From: Candidatus Collierbacteria bacterium GW2011_GWA2_42_17
GTDB taxonomy: Bacteria; Patescibacteriota; Microgenomatia; UBA1400; MFAQ01
Length of the DNA: 44,707 nt
Direction: 5' to 3'
Assembly: GCA_000998275.1 (NCBI GenBank)
Contig: LCDA01000002.1
Span: forward strand, 1 to 44,707
Shown: positions 20,865-36,033 of the stretch, one piece after another
Position numbering within the stretch: position 1 is the first letter of the stretch
How the letters are laid out: each line of letters starts with the position of its first letter
Notes under the pieces: generated by a model
What the model was told of the DNA's origin: nothing
What the model saw: only the letters and a program-made list of their open reading frames with translations
The model's database searches: none
Program-made: the position numbers and the translations under genes

Positions 20865-22850
<1,986 letters not shown>

Positions 22851-22852
22851 TT

Positions 22853-23389
22853 ATGAACCTACTTCACTCAATTAAAGCGCATAAAACAGACTCTTTGATC
22901 AATGTTGTTATCGAGATTCCTAGTGGCTCTCAATCAAAAATTGAATACGATACCGACAAAGAAGAGTTCGTCGTCGATAGAATTTTATCTACAAAACTTT
23001 CCTTTCCTTTTAATTATGGTTTTGTACCAGAAACGTGGAGTAACGATAACGACCCTTTGGATGCAGTTGTCCTAAGTTCGAAGCCCCAAAATACAGGTGC
23101 CGTCATCGAATCAAGAATTATCGGTTTATTAGCCACCAAAGACGAGAAGGGTACTGATGCCAAACTAATCACCGTCCCAAGCTCCGAGACAAATCCTATA
23201 TTTACCAAGATTAATACCATTGAAGATCTTGACGAACAAACACTCAACAACATTCAATATTTCTACAAAAACTATAAAATAATTGAGCCGGGAAAATGGG
23301 TAGACATCGATGGTTATGCTTCCAAAGAAGAAGCCGAGTCAAAACTTAAAATAGCTATTGAGGAATACCATCAACATTTTCAAAAATAA
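22853..23389 (+). CDS. ppa: Family I inorganic pyrophosphatase
   Basis: VIEIPSGS.SKIEYD, NYGFVPET, DNDPLD, DAKL, YK..EPGKW. Confidence 0.93.
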   Translation: MNLLHSIKAHKTDSLINVVIEIPSGSQSKIEYDTDKEEFVVDRILSTKLSFPFNYGFVPETWSNDNDPLDAVVLSSKPQNTGAVIESRIIGLLATKDEKGTDAKLITVPSSETNPIFTKINTIEDLDEQTLNNIQYFYKNYKIIEPGKWVDIDGYASKEEAESKLKIAIEEYHQHFQK

Positions 23390-23392
23390 AAT

Positions 23393-26041
23393 ATGGAAGA
23401 CCAAAACGAAGAAAACCAAACAAATAATACTGTCGTCTCCTCCGACGATCAAATTACTCCCGTCGTAATAGAAGACAAAAATACAGAGTGGGGCATCATA
23501 AAAAATGCTCCCATCGTCGAAGAAATGGAGCGCAGTTATCTAGACTACGCCATGTCCGTTATTGTTTCCCGTGCTCTTCCGGACATTCGTGACGGTTTAA
23601 AACCAGTTCATCGCCGTATCCTTTTTGCCATGAGAGATATGGGCATTACTCATAAAAGTGCCTACAAAAAATCAGCTCGTATTGTCGGTGAAGTACTAGG
23701 CAAATATCATCCACATGGTGACACTGCCGTTTACCAAACAATGGTTCGTTTGGCTCAAGACTTTTCCATGCGTTATCCCTTAGTCGATGGCCAAGGAAAC
23801 TTTGGTAGCATTGATGGCGACTCTGCTGCCGCTATGCGTTACACCGAAGCTCGTCTCTCCAAGATTGCTAGTGAACTTCTCGAAGACATCGACAAAAACA
23901 CGGTTGATTTTGTTGATAATTTTGATGGCTCACAACAAGAACCCCTTGTCCTTCCAGCCAAACTTCCCAATCTCTTGCTCATGGGCTCGGATGGTATCGC
24001 TGTTGGTATGGCCACCAAAATTCCTCCGCACAATTTACTTGAAGTTGTAAGCGCCATCAACGCCTTGATAGATAAAAGCAAAGTCTCCACAACAACTCCA
24101 GTTGAAGATGACAATCTCCACACAACAAGTTATAAAAATCTCATTGGCACTCTGGAATCCGACATTGAAATAGACGAGCTGTGTCAGCACATCAAAGGAC
24201 CGGACTTTCCAACTTCCGGTATCATCTACGACACTAAAGAAATCAAAAAAATGTATGACACTGGTAAAGCCAGTATCACCGTTAGGGGAGTGGCCGAGAT
24301 AGTTGAAAAGAAAAATGGTCGTTTCCAAATCCTCATTACTGAGCTGCCATACCAAGTAAACAAAGCTAAATTAATTACCGATATTGCCGAGCTAGTCAAA
24401 AAGAAAAGGGTCGATGGCATCTCCGATCTTCGTGACGAATCCGATAGAAAAGGTATGACTGTTGCCGTCGATCTCAAAAAAGACGCCAAGCCCAAGAGTG
24501 TTCTCAATAATCTCTACAAATACACTGAGTTGCAAACCAGTTTCCCTGCCAATGTTGTCGCTTTGACTTCTGATGGTACTCCACATCTTCTAAATCTCAA
24601 GCAAATTCTTATGGAGTTCACCGCTCACCGTCAAATGGTTGTTGTTCGCCGTTCTCAGTTTGAGTTAAAGTCCGCCAAAGACCGTGCCCATATTTTGAAA
24701 GGCTTGCTCATCGCCCTAGCCAACATCGATGACGTCATTGAAACAATTAAAAAGAGTCCCGACTCAGACACTGCTAGAACAAACCTAATGACAAAGTTTG
24801 GTCTTGACGAAATTCAGGCCAACGCCATCTTGGAAATGCAGCTTCGCCGCTTGGCCGCTCTCGAACGCCAAAAAATTGAGGCCGAGTACCAAGAACTCAT
24901 GAAAACGATTGAAAAATTAGTCGCCGTTCTCAAGGATCCCAAAAAAGTCTTCCAGATCATTAAAGATGAACTCATTAAACTAGCCCTAGACTATCCAGAG
25001 AAGAGAAGAACTAAGATTGTCGCTACGGCACCCGGTTCTCTCTCCGAGGAAGATCTCATTCCTTCCGAAGAAACTATCGTTACCCTTACCAAATCCGGAT
25101 ATATCAAACGCATGCCACTTTCTACTTTCCGAACTCAGAAAAGGGGGGGAAAGGGGGTTTCCGGAATGACCATCAAAGACACCGATGAGATTCAGCTTTT
25201 AACCAACGCCAATACTCACGACCGACTTCTAGTCTTTACCAGCAAAGGAAAAGTATTTGCCCTTAAAGTCTGGGAACTACCCGAAGGCAGTCGTATCAGC
25301 AAAGGACAAGCCATTATCAATCTTATAAACATCGAGACTGACGAAACCATCAAGAGTATTCTGCCAATGCCCAGACAGGTCGAGAAAAATCGTTTCCTTT
25401 TCTTCACTACCAAAGCTGGCGTCGTCAAACGGACAGCTCTTCTCAAATATGAAAATATTAAAAGTAATGGACTAATTGCTATTAAGCTCCAAAACGATGA
25501 CAACTTGGTCTGGGTAAATCAAACCTCCGGTTCCGACCATATACTACTTGTTTCCAAGGATGGCAAGTCGATTCGTTTCCACGAATCTGATGTCCGCCCA
25601 ACCGACAGAGACACTCAGGGTGTCAGAGGTATTTTACTGAAGAACGACGACTATGTTATCTCTATGGACGTTTTCGGACCGGAAGAACCAGTATCTACAG
25701 ATAAACGTGTCAAGCTGTTCAGAGACCTTCTCATCGTCACCGAAAAAGGAATGGGTAAACGCACTCCGCTTCCTGAATACCCTGTGCAAAATCGTTCCGG
25801 TCAAGGACTTAAAGTATGTGAGACAACAGACAAAACAGGTAAGCTTGCCGGTGCACTTCTGGTCGACCAAGACTCCGAAGTACTACTAATCACCACCTCT
25901 CAGGGTCAAGCTATCAAACTCCCTATAAAAAATATCCCCAGACTCGGTCGAGCCACCCAAGGGGTTATTCTTATGCGCTTTGCTAAAGATGGGGACTCTG
26001 TAGCTGCCGTGACCACCGTATCCGACTCCGAAGGGGAATAG
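23393..26041 (+). CDS. gyrA: DNA gyrase subunit A
   Basis: [22 protein letters not shown]; GyrA-box QKRGGKG. Confidence 0.97.
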
Positions 26042-28511: not shown

Positions 28512-29459
28512 CTACTTCAAATATTTATCGTGAATCTGTTTCAGTTGAGGGTTAGTTACATGAGTGTATATCTGAGTCGTAGCCACATTTTTATGACCTA
28601 ACATTTCTTGAACGCTTCGCAAATCCGCACCCTGTTGAAGTAAGGTAGTGGCAAATGAGTGTCGTAAAATATGAGGGCTTACTTTGATAGGCAAGCCAGC
28701 CATTCGTCGATATTTCTCTACAATTCGCTGAACCCCTCTAATCGACAATCTAGCTCTTTCACCACCCATTCCCGGATCCCACTCACCATTTTTCGGAATT
28801 CTAATCCAAAGTGCTCTGTATGGATCCGTTCTTGTTGAAAGGTATTTATCCAGCCATCCCGCACATCGATCTGTCAAAAACACCACTCGAGCCCGTCTTC
28901 CTTTTCCGATTATTCCAAATTCTCTCTGTTTCAAATCAATCTTATCAATATCCAACTTGGCGAGTTCGGACACACGTAACCCTGTACTAAATAGTACTTC
29001 CAGTATCGCCCTATCTCGCAACCCGGCCATGGTTGAGGTGTCCGGAGACGTCAGCAACCGCTCCACCTGATCTCTGTCTAAAAATTTAATTTGATGCTCT
29101 TCACCTTTGGGTAAATCCACTTTCTCCGGAGACAAGGTCTTGATACCTTTTTTTGCGCAATATTTTAGAAAAGCACGTAAGGCGATCACGTAATAAGCCT
29201 GAGTAGTAGGGGATAACCGTTTTCCATGAATATCCTCGAAACGGGCTAAATACAATCTATATCTACGTACCATCTCGCTCGTCAATTTCTCAATGTATTC
29301 TTGAGCATAATGTTTTTCAAACCAATCGCGAAACATCTTAAGATAGTGGGAGTAGTTACGGATGGTGAACTTACTATAGTTCTTTTCCACTTCGATATAG
29401 CTCAGATACCTTCTGATATGAACTCTCAAAGTAAGATCCGGAGCCTGTTTCTTAGCCAT
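28512..29459 (-). CDS. XerC/XerD-family tyrosine recombinase
   Basis: N-terminal SAM-like domain; TGLRVSEL, GKG, HILRHSFAT, LGH, TQIYTH. Confidence 0.93.
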   Translation of the reverse strand: MAKKQAPDLTLRVHIRRYLSYIEVEKNYSKFTIRNYSHYLKMFRDWFEKHYAQEYIEKLTSEMVRRYRLYLARFEDIHGKRLSPTTQAYYVIALRAFLKYCAKKGIKTLSPEKVDLPKGEEHQIKFLDRDQVERLLTSPDTSTMAGLRDRAILEVLFSTGLRVSELAKLDIDKIDLKQREFGIIGKGRRARVVFLTDRCAGWLDKYLSTRTDPYRALWIRIPKNGEWDPGMGGERARLSIRGVQRIVEKYRRMAGLPIKVSPHILRHSFATTLLQQGADLRSVQEMLGHKNVATTQIYTHVTNPQLKQIHDKYLK

Positions 29460-29478
29460 CTTCTTTCATCATATCAAA

Positions 29479-29493
29479 TTATTGTGCGACATA
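29479..29493. promoter_or_regulatory. Half copy of the dif-like site in the xer promoter region
   Basis: TTATTGTGCGAC identical to 30952-30963 (14/15 when extended). Confidence 0.6.
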
Positions 29494-29575
29494 AACTTCA
29501 ATACTTGATTTCTATAAAAAAATGAATACAATATAGGGCAATCGCACCTTAACACCACGCTTCAGAGGAGGAGTC

Positions 29576-30214
29576 ATGGTCTTTCAATTTCTACTATTGG
29601 GTATTCCTGTTTCTGTACACTGGACTACCATTTTTCTGTTTCTTATAATCTTTTGCGACTCTTTTTTATATCTAAGAATGAACCTAAAGGGGAAGAGTAC
29701 CAGAGGATACATTATCGCCGGCATCTTTTCCGTGGTTTTGATTATTCTATCTGTTCTAGTTCACGAAACCGGACACGCTGTTGTAGCTGGAAGTTACGGA
29801 TTTAAAATGACAAGTGCTGGAATTAATGGGGCTTTTGCCTATGTTTCGAACGGATTCAGCATGAACACCATCGAACCATACAAAGAGTTTTTGATAGCTC
29901 TGGCCGGACCAGCCTCAAACTTTTTGCTCGCCTTGCTTGGTGTTCCATTTATATATTTACTCGGACGCTCTCTACCCGAGAGTACTATCCGGTACTTTAC
30001 GATTGTGAACATCAGACTGGGAAGAATAAACCTTTGGCCGGTAGCTTTACTTGATGGCGGTCGGATTCTAAACTCTATTATTCGTTACACCGCCGGTACT
30101 GCCAATTGGACAAGCTACATTCCCTACCTAGTCTCGGTAATCTTTATCATATACATATTCAGCAAGAAAAGGGGGCATTTCGAACTCGAACATCTCATCG
30201 AAAAAATACCCTAA
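29576..30214 (+). CDS. M50-family (site-2/SpoIVFB-like) membrane metalloprotease
   Basis: HETGH (HExxH), IALAGPASN, NLWPVALLDGGR; SD GAGGAGGAG 29565-29573. Confidence 0.88.
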   Translation: MVFQFLLLGIPVSVHWTTIFLFLIIFCDSFLYLRMNLKGKSTRGYIIAGIFSVVLIILSVLVHETGHAVVAGSYGFKMTSAGINGAFAYVSNGFSMNTIEPYKEFLIALAGPASNFLLALLGVPFIYLLGRSLPESTIRYFTIVNIRLGRINLWPVALLDGGRILNSIIRYTAGTANWTSYIPYLVSVIFIIYIFSKKRGHFELEHLIEKIP

Positions 30215-30232
30215 ACAAGCACGCATCTTCTT

Positions 30233-30260
30233 ACACCCTGGAAACAGGGTGTTTTTATTT
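30233..30260 (+). terminator. Intrinsic terminator
   Basis: ACACCCTG-GAAA-CAGGGTGT followed by T-rich tail. Confidence 0.85.
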
Positions 30261-30275
30261 ATCAATACCTTTGTA

Positions 30276-30303
30276 TGTAATGGGTGTGTAATGGGTGTGT
30301 AAT
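30276..30303. repeat. Tandem 11-bp repeat (TGTAATGGGTG x2.5)
   Basis: TGTAATGGGTG TGTAATGGGTG TGTAAT. Confidence 0.85.
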
Positions 30304-30320
30304 AGAATAGTCAATCTCAG

Positions 30321-30345
30321 TCCCCGCAAAATAGCGGGGATTTTT
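30321..30345 (+). terminator. Second terminator-like hairpin
   Basis: TCCCCGC-aaaata-GCGGGGA-TTTTT. Confidence 0.7.
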
Positions 30346-30448
30346 ATTATTTCGAAATAAAAAAGTAAAAATATTTTCACACCGTGGAAAATAGGGGATA
30401 AGAAGTAGGGGAGACTTAAAACAATTTTTCAATAACATCATCAAAAAG

Positions 30449-30457
30449 TTATCCACA
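30449..30457 (+). promoter_or_regulatory. Perfect DnaA box
   Basis: TTATCCACA, followed directly by a ~180-bp very AT-rich tract. Confidence 0.65.
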
Positions 30458-30708
30458 ATCAAAAATAAAAATTAGTTGCGGTAAAACAAAACTTTAACAA
30501 AAAAATATTATTTAATAAAAAAATTTACGGAAAAATAAGTAATTAATAATCAATGACATAAAACAATATTTATTCATAAAAATGAATTCAAATTTAATTA
30601 ATTAAAGTCTACATATCAAAAATTTAAGTTCAAATTTACCATTACTTCGTTACACTAAAGAACAAATTAAAACAACAGAAATCGTTAAAAATGCCGGTCC
30701 GTACAATG

Positions 30709-30852
30709 CCCCTAAAACGGCTTCTGGAACTTTTTGTGGGTACTTTATCATGGGCCATTAGCCTTGTATTTTCGGGTTTATATATGGATAAGCTCAAAAT
30801 GAGGCTAATAGGCACAAACCCCAAAAGAATGACCAGAAAAGTACCATAGGGG
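30709..30852 (+). other. Long imperfect inverted repeat (rod-like structure); ncRNA or ssDNA element candidate
   Basis: Nested complementary blocks CCCCTA/TAGGGG, TTCTGG/CCAGAA, ATTAGCCT/AGGCTAAT, ATTTT/AAAAT, GGGTTTAT/ATAAGCTC. Confidence 0.55.
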
Positions 30853-30937
30853 AGCCCGAACCGAAAACTCTTCGGGATTATGTACAAAACTTGATGATGG
30901 GTGAATATATATCATCCGGTGCACAACTATCTGAGTT

Positions 30938-30965
30938 ACGTCGCAAAAGTGTTATTGTGCGACGT
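30938..30965. other. dif-like tyrosine recombinase site (11-6-11)
   Basis: ACGTCGCAAAA-GTGTTA-TTGTGCGACGT; arms are inverted repeats with 1 mismatch; CGCAnAA resembles the XerC arm of E. coli dif; ~1.5 kb from the xer gene. Confidence 0.7.
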
Positions 30966-31181
30966 ATCATAAATCATTCTTCTCTACCACTACTAAAAAC
31001 AAAAACAGGGAAGTGCAGAAGAATAACATTATCCTATCTCCCAATCAATGCCACAAGATTCATCAACAATAAATGTTTAATTATTATTAATTAATGATTT
31101 CGTCGAACCCTCTTTCCAGACAGACCTGTCGTGTTTTCTTCATTCTTTTGCCAACTGTATCAAACCCACTCACCTAGCAAG

Positions 31182-31190
31182 TTATCCACA
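31182..31190 (+). promoter_or_regulatory. Perfect DnaA box
   Basis: TTATCCACA. Confidence 0.6.
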
Positions 31191-31350
31191 TGACTGCCAA
31201 ATTTCGTGAAAACTTCCCTATTTTGTGAAAACTATTATAGGCTGATAGTTATAGGATATATTATAGGGCTTTATGTTCCTCTCCCTCTCCCCTTTTTCCA
31301 TGGCAACGAAATATTTTTTACAACACCAGTATATAAAGAATAATATTTAT

Positions 31351-32175
31351 CTACCCCACCCAGGACGTCGTCAGAAATCCTACTACAATAATGATTAATA
31401 CTGTCACTCCATACTCCAGCAGGCTTTCTAGATATACCCTATTAGACAGTCGTTGTTCCAGGATGCCAAATAAAGCGTAAAGCCCAGAGGTTAATATCAA
31501 GCCGCCCATAAATGGTTTAATCGGCCAAAAAGAAAGCACTCCGGACAGAATGGCAATTACAAAACTAGACGATACTGCATATCTCCAAACTTGAGGACCA
31601 AAATCGTTCTTTAGATCAACACTCCACAGACTCGGATAAGCCAACACAAAAGACACCACAAACGATATCGGAACCACCCACCAAAAAGCAAGTTTCAAAC
31701 TCAAAGCAACGGTAAAGAAAAATAAAGAGGTTACCAGGGTCAAAATAAAGTTAACCGAACGAGCGGCACGGAATAACTGGATTGTCCTAATTGAAGCCAC
31801 TGAAAAAATATTTTCAATCAACAATATGCTGTACAAACCCAACCCTACCAACAAAAAATATACGACTTTGAAAATTCCCGCCAAAAGCTGTGACGTTTCA
31901 ATAGATAAGGTTCGTCCAAACATACCGGGAAATGCAGTTGGTAAAAAATTTGAGAATAATCCGCTTCCCAAAGTAAACATCATTGGTAAAACAATCAAGG
32001 TAATCCACTCAATACCCTTCAGGTCGTCAAACAAGACCCAAACGGACAAGATGTATGAAACCGCCGCCACAGCCAGAACCAAGCCAAATCTATAGTCTAC
32101 TTGAGCCAAACTGGTTAACCATAAAAAAAACGCAATCAATGTACTAATCAAAATAAATTTTGTTCTTTTAGACAT
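31351..32175 (-). CDS. Multi-pass membrane protein of unknown function
   Basis: About 8-9 hydrophobic segments; follows yebC on the same strand. Confidence 0.8.
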   Translation of the reverse strand: MSKRTKFILISTLIAFFLWLTSLAQVDYRFGLVLAVAAVSYILSVWVLFDDLKGIEWITLIVLPMMFTLGSGLFSNFLPTAFPGMFGRTLSIETSQLLAGIFKVVYFLLVGLGLYSILLIENIFSVASIRTIQLFRAARSVNFILTLVTSLFFFTVALSLKLAFWWVVPISFVVSFVLAYPSLWSVDLKNDFGPQVWRYAVSSSFVIAILSGVLSFWPIKPFMGGLILTSGLYALFGILEQRLSNRVYLESLLEYGVTVLIIIVVGFLTTSWVG

Positions 32176-32177
32176 AG

Positions 32178-32702
32178 TTACTCAAGATTTGACCAAATAT
32201 CAACCACATCATCAAGGTCTTCCAAAGCCTCTAGCAGCTCTTCCACTCTAATTTTAGACTCTTCATCGAGTTTAATCATCGGTATCGGCGAAAGAGACCT
32301 CATATACGAGACGGATCCCGGTCCTCCCATTTTTGCTTCGTGCTTATTCAAAACAGAGTTTATTTCCGCTGCCGTTCTATTTCGATTATCAGACACAGCC
32401 GTGATCAAAATTCCCACACCTTCACGACTATATGCCTCGTAGACTACCTCTTCGGAAATATTTTCCCCACCAACACCCAAACCTTTTTCAATTGCCCGCT
32501 TAATATTTTCCATCGGCATATTAACTGCTCTAGCTTCGTCAACACAGGCTCTCAAAAAAGGATTGCCGTTAATATCACCAGAACCACCCTTTTTGACGGC
32601 TATGTGAATCTTTTTTGCGATTTTTGTAAAAACAGCACCGCGTTTATTATCTTCAATCGCCTTTTGATGTTTTATGGTGGACCACTTGGAATGACCGGAC
32701 AT
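32178..32702 (-). CDS. yebC: YebC/PmpR family protein (short form)
   Basis: MSGHSKWSTIKHQK, NMPMENIKRAI, SDNRNRT, LEDLDDV. Confidence 0.93.
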   Translation of the reverse strand: MSGHSKWSTIKHQKAIEDNKRGAVFTKIAKKIHIAVKKGGSGDINGNPFLRACVDEARAVNMPMENIKRAIEKGLGVGGENISEEVVYEAYSREGVGILITAVSDNRNRTAAEINSVLNKHEAKMGGPGSVSYMRSLSPIPMIKLDEESKIRVEELLEALEDLDDVVDIWSNLE

Positions 32703-32730
32703 GTCTCAATTCTACCAAACAATCTGCAGC

Positions 32731-32759
32731 TTGACATTAGACATATTTATCTTTAATAT
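32731..32759 (+). promoter_or_regulatory. Sigma70-type promoter TTGACA-N17-TAATAT
   Basis: Direct read upstream of the TPR gene. Confidence 0.6.
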
Positions 32760-32769
32760 GGCTTCCAGC

Positions 32770-33477
32770 ATGAACAATGACTCTACGCACGATTTAACAC
32801 AGGAAGCAATAAAAGCCGCAGTCAGCAAAAACTGGAACGAAGCTATCAGCCTGAACACCAAAATTTTAGAAACCTATCCCGATGATATCTCAACTCTAAA
32901 TCGCCTTGGTATCTCCTACTCCATGATTGGCAAAAACAAAAAGGCAGAAGAAAACTTTAATAAAGTTCTCAAAATCGACATCCACAACCCCATCGCTAAA
33001 AATAATTTAGTCCGCTTAAAAGCCAACAAAACTACCGGTCTTTTAAACCCCTTCACTCAAACCGTTAGTTTCATTGAAGAGCCGGGTAAATCCAAGGTTG
33101 TTCCCCTTGTCAACCAAGCTGAACCAAAGATTTTTTCCGCTCTTAATATTGGTGAGCCCGTTGAGCTGGAAAACTGCAAACATAAAGTAAAGGTGTCCGA
33201 TATGAAAAACATCTTCATTGGCTATCTTCCTGATAATATCTCCCATCGACTTCTTCAGCTTCTAAAATCCGGTTACAAATATAAAACCGTCATGAAGTCC
33301 GTCAACCCCAAAACTCCTCAGGTGTTCATTCAGGAAATGCACGCCGCCAAACGCCTTAAGGGTGTTCCTTCTTTTCCTCTTGACGACAATGAAATTCTTC
33401 CCTCACTCTCCGCCGGAGAATCAAGTGAACTTCCTCCTCTGGAAATCTACGATCCTCTTATGGGTGAAGAAAGTTAA
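32770..33477 (+). CDS. TPR-repeat protein with HIRAN-like C-terminal domain
   Basis: TPR helices (LNRLGISY..AEENFNKVLKID..NPIA); IGYLPDNISHRLLQLLKSG; start 32770 or 32758. Confidence 0.75.
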   Translation: MNNDSTHDLTQEAIKAAVSKNWNEAISLNTKILETYPDDISTLNRLGISYSMIGKNKKAEENFNKVLKIDIHNPIAKNNLVRLKANKTTGLLNPFTQTVSFIEEPGKSKVVPLVNQAEPKIFSALNIGEPVELENCKHKVKVSDMKNIFIGYLPDNISHRLLQLLKSGYKYKTVMKSVNPKTPQVFIQEMHAAKRLKGVPSFPLDDNEILPSLSAGESSELPPLEIYDPLMGEES

Positions 33478-33479
33478 AT

Positions 33480-34367
33480 TTATTTTATCCAAATCCTCAT
33501 TTTTTCGTCTTTATCTACAACAAACTCTGGTTGAGCAATTTTTGTACAGCCGACTTGTTCCCTCAATACTTTTTCGGTCATCTCGTATCTCCTGTCCGTA
33601 CTATATACACAACCCCTTCCTTCAACACTTTCCTCCGCATCAGCCTTCAACTCAATTACATGCATTCCGGCTGACTCTAATTGATTAGCCAAAATACTCC
33701 CCAACCCGGGAATTCCTGATACATTATTGATTGATACATCAGCGTTTTCATCAAGTATAGGTTCGATTACAAACTTATTTTTTGTCCACAAACTCATCGT
33801 TTGATTGAACTCTTTAAACTCTTTCCCGTCAGGATCCGTTACACTATCAAACACTGACCCTGGCACTGTCATTTCCAATACTTTTTTTGACTTTACCGCA
33901 TCAGCCATAAACTGCCTGATAAGTACTCTGTCACGAATACTTAAATCAGTTTTTAAACCTACCGAAAACATTTTTCCCAATACATTCTCTATCGTCGAAA
34001 CATCATCAATTTTAATGGTTCTCGAGATTACTACTCCCATCGCTTGACCCAAAGACTTCTCCATATTTTCGTAAGGTTTTTTTTCGGAGACTCCGTAGCT
34101 CCACACCGACACTAGTGGATAATGAGCTTCGGAATTAAATACTTTTATTCGAATGTTTTTTGGCATATTTATCCAACCTACCATTCCTTCCTCGGGTCGA
34201 ACTAACAACACGCTTACACTTTCCTCTCCCACGATCACCATGTTAAGACCCATTTTTGAACTATAAACTCCCCTTCTGGTCACATCATAAACAAGCAGTC
34301 CCAAAAGCACTATCAAAAATGCGCTTCCCAGAATTAATAAGATTTTGTCTTTAATACTCGCCTTCAT
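33480..34367 (-). CDS. Membrane-anchored protein with LytR-C/LCP-like features
   Basis: N-terminal TM; C-terminal VSINNVSGIPGLGSILANQLESAG resembles LytR_C. Confidence 0.6.
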   Translation of the reverse strand: MKASIKDKILLILGSAFLIVLLGLLVYDVTRRGVYSSKMGLNMVIVGEESVSVLLVRPEEGMVGWINMPKNIRIKVFNSEAHYPLVSVWSYGVSEKKPYENMEKSLGQAMGVVISRTIKIDDVSTIENVLGKMFSVGLKTDLSIRDRVLIRQFMADAVKSKKVLEMTVPGSVFDSVTDPDGKEFKEFNQTMSLWTKNKFVIEPILDENADVSINNVSGIPGLGSILANQLESAGMHVIELKADAEESVEGRGCVYSTDRRYEMTEKVLREQVGCTKIAQPEFVVDKDEKMRIWIK

Positions 34368-36033
34368 AGGTACTCCTTAAAACACCATCCTGTTTCTTTT
34401 TATACTTAGCTAAAATATCCTTATCTATTCCATATTTCTTAATCACTTGCCCCATGTGCCAGCCGCTAACAAAATGCGGAAAGATCACATAAGCCACCCC
34501 GGCTTGATAAAGTTCCTTTGCTTGAGCCAAACTTTCCGCATCCGCAATTACCGGTACTTCAATCTTCCGATTCCTTAACTCTGAAATTAAAGATAGTGAA
34601 TCGTTTAGACTTTTTATGGTTGAGATTACCAGCTTGGCTTGTGCGATGTTTGCCAATTCCAAAACATCTGGGTCAGTCGCATCGGCAAAAATAACCATCT
34701 CCCCCTTCTTTTTTAGATCGGTTATCACCTGTGGGTTAAAATCTACCACCACAGTTTCCTCACCGATTTTCTTCAAAAATGCCAGAATACTCTTTCCGGT
34801 TCTATCTCCTCCAAAAAGAACAATATGATTCTTGTGTTCAACTTTTATTTGCTTATTTTTCCCGCTGAATTTAAACAGTAATTTCGATATTTTACTTATT
34901 TTAATACTTAGTTTTTCGGAATTACTTATTAAAATAGTCGACAGTGCCATCGAAAACAAACCGGCTAGGGTTACTGCCCTAACTAACGGTTCATTCCACA
35001 ATCCCGTAGCAAGTCCGGCTGACATAATCACCAAAGAAAACTCCGACACCTGTGTCATGTTTATACCCAACATTAATGCATTTCTGCCGCTCAGACCAAC
35101 AAGTCTCGACACCATATGGGTCACCAAAAACTTTACCAAAACGATCATCGGAACAAGCACCAACAATAACTTCCAATCCACACCCCCTAACCCAACTTGA
35201 AATCCAAGCAGTACAAAAAACATCGTTAGGAACACGTCCCGTAAAACCCTGATCTTACTAATAATTTGAAAATGCCCCCAACTTGTGGACAGTGATAACC
35301 CGGCAAGGAGTCCTCCAATCTCCGGAGACAAACCCAAAAGCTTCACCGAGCCAAAGATGACCAAAGCAAACCAAGACAGACTGAACAACACTAAATCCTC
35401 AGCCGTTTTAATCACGTATCTCATTAACTGCGAAATCAAAAAGTGACCAACAACATTCACCGCCAAAACCAACGACAAAAGTTTCGCCAATAGTGTTCCC
35501 AAACCAAAGGCATCCGTCCCTCCTCCTGCACTTGGTAAAAATACCAGTATTCCAATAGCCAGAATATCTTGAAGAAGCAAAATACCCAAAGTCAGTCTCC
35601 CCGAATAACTTTCAAGCTCCCTTTTTTCAGACAGCACCTTGACCGCGACAATGGTACTGCTAAAAGTCATCGCGATTGCAAAAAACACGGCCGCCAAGGG
35701 AGAAAAGCCTACAGCAAACAAACCAAACACCACGTAAACCGCAGTCAATAATAATGTTTGACCCACAAAGATAAACACCGCTTCTTTACCTACCTTTCGG
35801 ATCTCCGTCCAGTTCATTTCCAAACCCACCAAAAATAGCAACAAGGTCACCCCTAAAGTCCCCAAGAGTTCCAACACCTCTACGCTCGGCGAACTAATGA
35901 GTCCGGACAAACCGATAACAAATCCGGACAAAACATGACCAATAATCGAAGGTAAACCAAGATAACGAAAGACAATTCCCACCAAAACAGCGATGACAAA
36001 AACCGCAACCAACTCGACAACAAATAAATCCAT
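34351..36033 (-). CDS. Cation:proton antiporter (CPA2/KefC-like) with TrkA-N domain
   Basis: LLLFLVGLE, FSSTIVAVK, LLLQD, QVSEFS; C-terminal VVVDFNP..FADATD. Confidence 0.9.
   Translation of the reverse strand: MDLFVVELVAVFVIAVLVGIVFRYLGLPSIIGHVLSGFVIGLSGLISSPSVEVLELLGTLGVTLLLFLVGLEMNWTEIRKVGKEAVFIFVGQTLLLTAVYVVFGLFAVGFSPLAAVFFAIAMTFSSTIVAVKVLSEKRELESYSGRLTLGILLLQDILAIGILVFLPSAGGGTDAFGLGTLLAKLLSLVLAVNVVGHFLISQLMRYVIKTAEDLVLFSLSWFALVIFGSVKLLGLSPEIGGLLAGLSLSTSWGHFQIISKIRVLRDVFLTMFFVLLGFQVGLGGVDWKLLLVLVPMIVLVKFLVTHMVSRLVGLSGRNALMLGINMTQVSEFSLVIMSAGLATGLWNEPLVRAVTLAGLFSMALSTILISNSEKLSIKISKISKLLFKFSGKNKQIKVEHKNHIVLFGGDRTGKSILAFLKKIGEETVVVDFNPQVITDLKKKGEMVIFADATDPDVLELANIAQAKLVISTIKSLNDSLSLISELRNRKIEVPVIADAESLAQAKELYQAGVAYVIFPHFVSGWHMGQVIKKYGIDKDILAKYKKKQDGVLRSTYEGEY

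Follow-up and report, generated by a model that had tools for sequence, protein, structure and literature searches.

A dif-like site, convergent polar motifs and DnaA boxes at a probable terminus region of a Candidatus Collierbacteria chromosome with one-signed GC skew

The window analysed here is the first 44.7 kb (44,707 nucleotides) of contig C2 (129 kb) in the assembly of Candidatus Collierbacteria bacterium GW2011_GWA2_42_17, an ultra-small groundwater bacterium of the Microgenomates, within the Candidate Phyla Radiation (CPR)/Patescibacteria. At 30215-31350 of this window the assembly (G000; 730,827 bp, 15 contigs, 97% complete, 42% GC) contains a non-coding locus of 1136 bp, which lies between an M50-type peptidase-like gene (29576-30214, + strand; Pfam Peptidase_M50 7.1e-17) and a DUF5656 membrane-protein gene (31351-32175, - strand; Pfam DUF5656 8.3e-07) and which holds a dif-like site, two perfect DnaA boxes and an extremely AT-rich tract. 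It is the only gap of at least 600 bp between open reading frame (ORF) calls inside the window; the initial annotation of this DNA had called it the only long non-coding stretch. That annotation read the locus as an origin and a terminus lying side by side, possibly in a chromosome replicated in one direction. We consider a different reading probable: that the locus is a terminus/dif control region, that oriC lies between dnaA and dnaN, that replication is conventionally two-armed and that the GC skew is the sum of a strand-wide offset and a two-arm term. The locus was compared to a complete genome of the same genus (G001; 905,201 bp, one contig), to a complete genome of another genus (G013; 1,089,434 bp) and to 29 related loci recovered with the DUF5656 gene as anchor.

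The dif-like site is 28 bp long (30938-30965) and consists of an 11-bp arm, a 6-bp spacer and a second 11-bp arm, with the arms palindromic at 10 of 11 positions. It can also be drawn as a 12/6/12 inverted repeat, with arms at 30937-30948 and 30955-30966 which are 92% complementary and have 6 nt between them. The site is single-copy in G000, G001 and G013. It was found with ≤ 7 mismatches in 25 of the 29 related loci, other families of the order included, and with ≤ 3 mismatches in 22; the variation was concentrated in the spacer, and some of the four loci without a site were truncated. The order DUF5656, DnaA box, dif, xer is kept across the family, with the site lying approximately 360-440 bp past the stop of the DUF5656 gene in 19 of the 25 site-bearing loci. 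When five distant genomes were searched with an exact degenerate dif pattern, four contained one copy and the fifth contained two.

The gene next to the locus on the other side of the peptidase gene (28512-29459, - strand) encodes a Xer-family tyrosine recombinase of 315 aa (Pfam Phage_integrase 2.5e-42, plus a SAM-like N-domain), bearing out the earlier report of a dif-like site near a Xer gene. This protein scored 250.7 bits to the NCBIfam XerC model and 239.9 bits to XerD, both under the equivalog cut-offs, 215.7 bits to XerA (cut-off 220) and 123.9 bits to XerS (cut-off 267). A second Xer-like gene, on contig C4, scored 166 bits to XerC and is likewise under the equivalog cut-off. FtsK is encoded with its gamma domain (FtsK_SpoIIIE 203.4 bits; FtsK_gamma 87.3 bits vs a cut-off of 30.6). 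The site at the centre of the locus would be used for the resolution of chromosome dimers, served by the adjacent Xer recombinase.

It should be noted that a generic dif core pattern did not match the site with ≤ 4 mismatches, so membership of the dif family rests on architecture and position and not on sequence. The best conserved match to the generic pattern (C6:5083-5110 and G001:266252) was dropped, being a conserved strong promoter-like sequence upstream of a gene (TTGACA, 17 nt with TGTG, TAGCAT); the other matches lie at 536.35-536.39 kb of G001, within a 106-bp spacer. Among the distant genomes, the one with two exact dif-like copies (G045, Beckwithbacteria-type) has them on different contigs, at C26:55139 and C35:3942, and three perfect DnaA boxes are found less than 600 bp from the C26 copy.

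Misassembly, a recent rearrangement and the remnant of an integrated element had been listed as alternatives by the initial annotation, and an artefact of any of these kinds appears to us highly improbable. Misassembly is excluded by contigs from two other studies which bridge the whole region: record 21 of X6 spans 29248-35058 with 1 difference, and record 3 of X11 spans 28870-31449 (the X11 run also shows a 26-bp deletion at 30272, inside a short GTGTAATGG-type tandem repeat). A recent rearrangement or element remnant is unlikely given the family-wide arrangement of genes and sites. An integrative mobile element exploiting Xer (IMEX), or what is left of such an element, was rejected because the window holds no second dif-like site and no element border, the 2 weak matches found being what shuffled sequence would give (0-4). 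On the other side, the stretch carrying the M50 gene was inserted between xer and the conserved region in a lineage-specific manner: it is matched in G009 and unmatched in G001, G004 and G002, where xer directly abuts the conserved non-coding region. One contig of X7, an independent groundwater run (depth approximately 5), also matches the window only rightwards from the first base of the dif-like site (30936-30938), and to the left carries more than 255 unlike, GC-richer letters; it could be a relative sharing just the conserved site, or DNA joined at the dif-like site.

A polar motif is a further sign of a terminus here. Searching G001 for oligomers which flip their strand preference between the putative arms gave G-rich words with the core AGGGGA, and in unbiased scans of all hexamer pairs (1674 in contig C2, 2011 in G013 and 1983 in G001) AGGGGA ranked first for strand flipping each time (p = 8.5e-11, 1.9e-14 and 1.2e-30). 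On this contig it occurs at 20:3 (+:-) left of the dif-like site and 6:51 right of it (Fisher p = 8.5e-11), with the switch falling between 30848 and 31288. In G001 the top:bottom counts are 31:1 from 40 to 90 kb and 5:40 from 90 to 160 kb; dif (90415) sits between the final copy on the top strand, at 90086, and the earliest on the bottom strand, at 90527. In G013, dif (818859) falls between the cumulative maximum of the motif, at 818317, and the opposite-strand copy which comes next, at 818959. Summed over the 25 related loci, the motif stands at 98:4 on the left and 6:76 on the right. This preference holds in genes of both orientations and opposes base composition on the low-skew arm. Motif and gene orientation converge alike in five distant lineages.

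Within the locus itself, two tandem AGGGGA motifs at 30393 and 30407 (30393-30412, + strand) point towards dif from a conserved block (30380-30415, 82-91% column identity). The last + strand copy before the switch (30848-30853) is invariant in a 10-sequence alignment, and the first - strand copy after it is at 31288-31293. The polarity reverses a second time near dnaA: the cumulative minimum in G001 is at 571400, beside dnaA, and the reversal in G013 is within approximately 8 kb of dnaA. Gene orientation in G001 behaves in a two-armed manner as well, converging at 111 kb (111420) and diverging over 496-647 kb. By analogy with characterised systems, the gamma domain of FtsK is the expected reader of AGGGGA, and the translocase would probably be guided to dif by motifs pointing at it from both arms.

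The other end of such an arrangement was found outside the window, in the dnaA-dnaN spacer of contig C1 (C1:169408-169711; 304 bp, 26% GC), where both genes scored above the NCBIfam equivalog cut-offs. This spacer contains five one-mismatch and three two-mismatch DnaA boxes, at positions conserved in G000, G001 and G013. Two of its weak boxes stand in tandem and are followed, after 3-4 bp, by a run which reads 3'-AAT GAT GAT GAC AAT GAT-5' on the complementary strand, and then by AT-rich DNA. The definition of the basal unwinding system (BUS) asks for a DnaA box, a spacer of ≤ 16 bp and at least three NAN trios with the consensus 3'-GAT-5' (PMC8287927), and the dnaA-dnaN spacer fits it. The trio run, with at least two exact 3'-GAT-5', is present in G000 and G013 and is just partial, read by eye, in G001; G013 has the clearest tandem pair, with three exact trios. 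The spacer is a candidate oriC of this CPR lineage. Together with dif it splits the circle 46:54 in G001 and 42:58 in G013. The initial annotation had advised looking for another dif or oriC: no other dif was found in G000, and an oriC-type element was found on C1.

The initial annotation had also remarked that the + strand is richer in C than in G on both sides of the locus, without a GC-skew flip, and its two spot counts (18 C/6 G and 22 C/3 G) were exact. The skew is negative in each of the 44 one-kb bins of the window, and no contig of G000 changes sign, the contigs standing at approximately |0.1| or |0.3|. The constancy of sign was thus upheld; that of magnitude was not, as the skew of contig C2 steps from approximately -0.17 on the left to -0.30 on the right near 30 kb (5-kb bins). 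The best change point of the orientation-corrected skew at third codon positions (GC3 skew) falls exactly between 30214 and 31351, with a likelihood profile which is flat over approximately 16-34 kb. The sign of the skew is the same on both flanks in 24 of the 25 dif-bearing loci, and the xer-side flank is the lower in 25/25. The unique 11-6-11 site, its conservation, the switch of AGGGGA in three genomes and this step in skew strongly uphold the terminus half of the earlier interpretation.

Cumulative skew on complete relatives, a check which had been proposed, gave a divided answer: the skew is one-signed in both genomes, and it has a two-arm component which steps at or near dif. In G001 it is positive all round (approximately +0.25 in one half and +0.09 in the other), and in G013 it is negative all round. 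The mean-subtracted cumulative skew of G013 has its maximum at 818945, 86 bp from dif; the detrended maximum of G001 is at 110855, 20 kb from dif and beside the convergence of gene orientation at 111420. A gene-level regression of GC3 skew with orientation as covariate gave an offset of 0.34 in G001 and 0.25 in G013 and an arm term of ±0.08 and ±0.07, respectively. A square wave which steps both at dif and at the dnaA-dnaN spacer had a lower residual sum of squares (RSS) than a sawtooth with a single discontinuity (2967.7 vs 3042.2 in G001; 3146.0 vs 3282.6 in G013), and the sawtooth model was rejected. Adding a linear gradient to the square wave gained little (2951.2 vs 2967.7 and 3143.1 vs 3146.0). 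At four-fold degenerate sites in G000, G001 and G013, the G-rich strand is also A-rich by approximately 0.15, in both arms and in genes of either orientation, so the offset of the skew is a strand-wide purine excess; the ratio of the GC term between the arms is approximately 0.71 in both G001 and G013. The C-rich + strand on both sides of the locus would then reflect a large purine offset of the whole order, with an ordinary leading/lagging component superimposed which switches at the locus. A separate observation concerns G001:620-640 kb, an island of approximately 20 kb with near-zero or negative skew (-0.04, -0.01; GC3 mean +0.05) in a strongly positive arm, which is possibly a recent inversion or acquired DNA.

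The DnaA boxes at the locus are what had suggested an origin. Two perfect copies of TTATCCACA are indeed present, at 30449-30457 and 31182-31190, both on the + strand and 733 bp apart, and they share a 12-nt context, AAGTTATCCACA. There are only 11 perfect boxes in the whole assembly, which gives an expectation of 0.017 per 1136 bp and a probability of at least two of 1.45e-4 for one region. The 31182 box is conserved family-wide and keeps its distance from dif: in 20 of 25 loci there is a perfect box, on the same strand, at 213-224 bp from the dif-like site, and G013 has it at 819097. The box follows the 3' end of the DUF5656 gene and is separated by dif from xer; its fixed spacing suggests an architectural accessory site. 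To our knowledge, a DnaA box at a fixed distance from dif is without precedent. The 30449 box is conserved within the genus only: 8 of 25 loci have a perfect box in the corresponding position, +496 to +534 from dif. In relatives without the M50 insertion, a box of this type is approximately 245 bp upstream of the xer start, and a regulatory role is therefore possible. Of the several one-mismatch boxes which had been reported, the one at 30783-30791 (- strand; TATGGATAA on the + strand) is the sole one in the locus, the box at 30383 having 2 mismatches. The AT-rich tract (30458-30640) begins directly after the 30449 box and was as described: its GC content is 15%, and no other 183-bp stretch in the assembly is as rich in AT, a run of N apart. 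Its AT-richness is kept in the genus (bins of 8-24% GC) and is weaker or absent in other genera, and its sequence is just 40-65% conserved.

Several features expected of an oriC are missing from the locus. The perfect boxes are far apart and no box cluster within a few hundred bp accompanies them: the density scan which had been proposed gave 11 boxes with ≤ 2 mismatches in the 1136 bp of the locus vs 4.16 per kb genome-wide, a modest excess, and vs 8 in the 304 bp of the dnaA-dnaN spacer. No run of NAN trios was seen within 16 bp after either perfect box, in a reading made by eye and not scripted, using the BUS definition (PMC8287927). An AT-rich unwinding element beside boxes, as an origin would have, is present within the genus only. 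Gene orientation, polar motifs and skew, which would diverge at an origin, all converge at the locus. The spacing of the boxes, the lack of a cluster and of trios, and the converging polarity argue against an oriC at the locus, and the proposal that replication starts here is not supported; oriC-type architecture is found at dnaA-dnaN instead. More probably, the boxes and the AT tract flanking dif are DnaA-binding sites with a regulatory or architectural role, which might be the control of xer or of a dif-proximal promoter, service as an accessory site of the recombination synapse, or titration of DnaA.

The idea of an origin beside the terminus, at which the initial annotation arrived independently, nevertheless has a published basis. 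A near-linear cumulative skew in the order UBA1400 was described for Ch65, a Collierbacteria genome and a Beckwithbacteria genome, and was explained by an origin and a terminus close together or by unidirectional theta replication (Kadnikov et al. 2020, PMC7143001); as far as the accessible text of that paper goes, neither oriC nor dif was mapped. Applied here, replication would start at the DnaA box and AT tract of the locus, run one way round and end at dif, and the dnaA-dnaN boxes would be merely regulatory. This would account for the skew, which never changes sign within the contigs of G000 or around the circle in two complete relatives, as looked for in a unidirectional replicon, and for the purine offset in both arms at four-fold sites. 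The only sharp discontinuity found in skew is at dif, with none at the dnaA-dnaN spacer, and the tract of highest AT content in the assembly does adjoin the perfect box. Replicons which are copied in one direction and have ter beside ori also exist, namely the Pseudoalteromonas chromids (PMC7858055). However, two arms which diverge near dnaA are seen both in gene orientation and in AGGGGA polarity, and one-way replication would leave approximately half of the genes head-on, up to 100% in 20-kb bins of one arm. Instead of being adjacent with a single polarity, the oriC-type element is separated from dif by 42-46% of the circle. The dnaA-dnaN spacer keeps tandem boxes and trios (clear in G000 and G013, partial in G001), which are elements known only from unwinding, and the locus has neither a box cluster nor trios. 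The 30449 box and the extreme AT tract are confined to the genus. The offset is old and common to several families. A pure one-way model predicts uniform skew, and the orientation-corrected GC3 skew differs by approximately 0.14-0.16 between the arms. Moreover, the link between a DnaA box at dif and one-signed skew is not clean: G043 has strong one-signed skew without a perfect box within 1 kb of dif, so the offset does not depend on the box, and the skew of G041 and G044 is weak. We therefore regard an origin at the locus, with replication in one direction, as unlikely.

Several observations do not sit easily with conventional two-armed replication between dnaA-dnaN and dif, and weigh against it. 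The transition from low to high skew is displaced from the dnaA-dnaN spacer by approximately 40-135 kb, into the low-skew arm. In G001 the genes converge in orientation 21 kb away from dif, and their orientation is mixed over approximately 150 kb around dnaA; on contig C1, AGGGGA shows weak polarity in the arm to the left of dnaA. The boxes and AT tract of the locus call for a function, given that the most AT-rich tract of the assembly adjoins a perfect box and that one box is held at a fixed distance from dif family-wide. The counts across related loci and distant lineages come from kin and are not independent trials. Above all, a chromosome-wide, one-signed purine skew is most simply made by one-directional replication, and none of the results accounts for it otherwise. 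We know of no bacterial chromosome of two-armed architecture with such a purine offset. As a strand distinction right round the circle calls for a one-way process, a one-directional process stays a live idea, although the architecture speaks against it as the only mode.

Such a process need not replace the origin at dnaA-dnaN. The DnaA box and AT tract beside dif might support a second, one-directional initiation, or a rolling-circle or strand-displacement start, which would write the purine offset in addition to the work of a conventional, bidirectional oriC; in another form, forks could routinely cross dif into the other arm. In favour of two modes together are the composition of the skew, a large constant plus a smaller two-arm term with the same arm ratio in two genera, the sharpness of the step at dif and the conserved DnaA box or boxes flanking dif. 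Against it, the offset does not require the box, as G043 shows, the square wave gains very little in fit from an added gradient, and the window holds no second dif-like site or element border. We hold this dual mode for a faint prospect. Were it true, the chromosome would be copied by two modes, of which the one-way mode writes the purine offset.

A more modest function for the boxes, which could be seen as a sub-hypothesis of the terminus reading, is that the locus titrates DnaA or carries DnaA-regulated transcription, of xer or of an unannotated transcript, and lies beside dif by chance. The position of the 30449-type box upstream of xer in relatives would agree with this. So would the only other perfect box kept in G000, G001 and G013, which is found just upstream of dnaA, the position of the classic autoregulatory site. 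Set against it, the family-wide 31182 box and xer are on opposite sides of dif, and two boxes are few for titration. A promoter consensus scan of the locus gave 7 hits vs 7.5 expected by chance, and the region showed no Rfam match, no covariation and no coding signal. As a complete account of the locus, with dif nearby only by coincidence, this seems to us doubtful, and no likelier than the dual mode.

We infer from the sequence comparisons that the terminus reading, with bidirectional replication, is the best one: unidirectional replication as the only mode is opposed by the two-armed pattern of genes and AGGGGA and by the distance of dnaA-dnaN from dif. The locus is most probably a dif/terminus of known kind, and what is unusual about it is the near-palindromic site, the DnaA box at fixed spacing and the AT tract at genus level.

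The remaining conserved features of the locus have no evident product. A non-coding block, block A (30687-30757), has 82-99% column identity in the genus and is found in other genera; it showed no codon periodicity in any frame, it contains stops in relatives and 0 of 28 pairs covaried. An ORF at 30642-30887 (- strand) was rejected as a gene on account of stops in relatives and absent periodicity, the + frames being likewise without periodicity, and a structured RNA in 30680-30935 was rejected as 0 of 28 predicted pairs covaried in 10 sequences. No tRNA or tmRNA was found within the locus region, and an Rfam scan of 29400-31500 at E ≤ 1 gave just two sub-threshold chance matches. In G001, 28 nt of block A (window 30687-30729) recur exactly at 848192-848219, in the 5' coding part of a giant gene (842454-848333, - strand); no second copy of block A was found in G000. 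Directly after the 31182 box, two 19-nt direct repeats (...TTTYGTGAAA; 31193-31230, + strand) lie inside the most conserved block, 31140-31260. Two terminator-like hairpins (30233-30252 and 30319-30342, + strand) are found 3' of the M50 gene, by consensus scan only, with 2 found vs 1.3 expected. Further to the left, gyrB and gyrA (20868-26041) are 5-10 kb from dif and are transcribed towards it; in many bacteria these two genes are near dnaA.

The closest known systems are XerCD-dif-FtsK with FtsK-orienting polar sequences (KOPS) in Escherichia coli and RipX/CodV-dif-SpoIIIE/SftA in Bacillus subtilis, with KOPS and the SpoIIIE recognition sequences (SRS) being G-rich polar motifs. The Collierbacteria locus shares with them a unique 28-bp site of two 11-bp inverted arms and a 6-bp spacer, the convergence of polar motifs and a step in skew, and its genome encodes Xer-family recombinases and an FtsK gamma domain. 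It differs in that the arms are palindromic at 10/11 and are off the proteobacterial and firmicute consensus, a recombinase gene is beside the site, the polar core is AGGGGA, a DnaA box is found 213-224 bp from the site and the skew changes in magnitude and not in sign. In the single-recombinase Xer modules the gene is beside the site, as in XerS/difSL of streptococci, XerH/difH of Helicobacter and archaeal XerA/dif. Our locus resembles these in that the recombinase gene adjoins a near-palindromic site; unlike them, the genome has a second Xer-like gene (on C4), and a one- or two-recombinase mode would both fit.

Among systems with an unusual origin, the chromids of Pseudoalteromonas, in which ter2 adjoins ori2 (Xie et al. 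2021, PMC7858055), likewise have one-signed skew and terminus and origin signals close together. They are plasmid-derived, have a plasmid-type origin and replicate in a unidirectional mode shown by coverage, whereas here a trio-bearing, DnaA/oriC-type origin would lie roughly opposite dif, and two arms are seen in gene orientation and in the polar motif. The skew anomaly described for UBA1400 (PMC7143001) is that of the same lineage, with the same near-linear cumulative skew and G/C disparity between strands; our account departs from it in placing oriC and dif approximately 42-46% of the circle apart and in resolving the skew into an offset and a two-arm term. The dnaA-dnaN spacer on C1 resembles the BUS of Bacillus-type oriC (PMC8287927) in its box cluster, tandem boxes, spacer of ≤ 16 bp, three occurrences of 3'-GAT-5' and AT-rich DNA, and the dif locus itself is unlike it in having no such architecture.

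In our literature searches, which covered papers without their supplements, no report on the position of dif or oriC in this lineage came up; the predicted unidirectional replicons listed in Table S1 of PMC7858055 may be relevant here. As far as these searches showed, the site, AGGGGA and the dnaA-dnaN spacer are the first candidate dif, polar motif and oriC for the lineage. Since 2020, the one explanation proposed for the one-signed skew of the order has been an origin beside the terminus or one-way replication. The two readings make different predictions for sequencing coverage, which would form a V shape between dnaA-dnaN and dif or a sawtooth breaking at dif. The candidate dif, polar motif and oriC would help to check CPR assemblies and to orient them, a task for which cumulative skew fails. 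For the biology of these bacteria, a two-armed build makes the strand-wide purine offset harder to explain.

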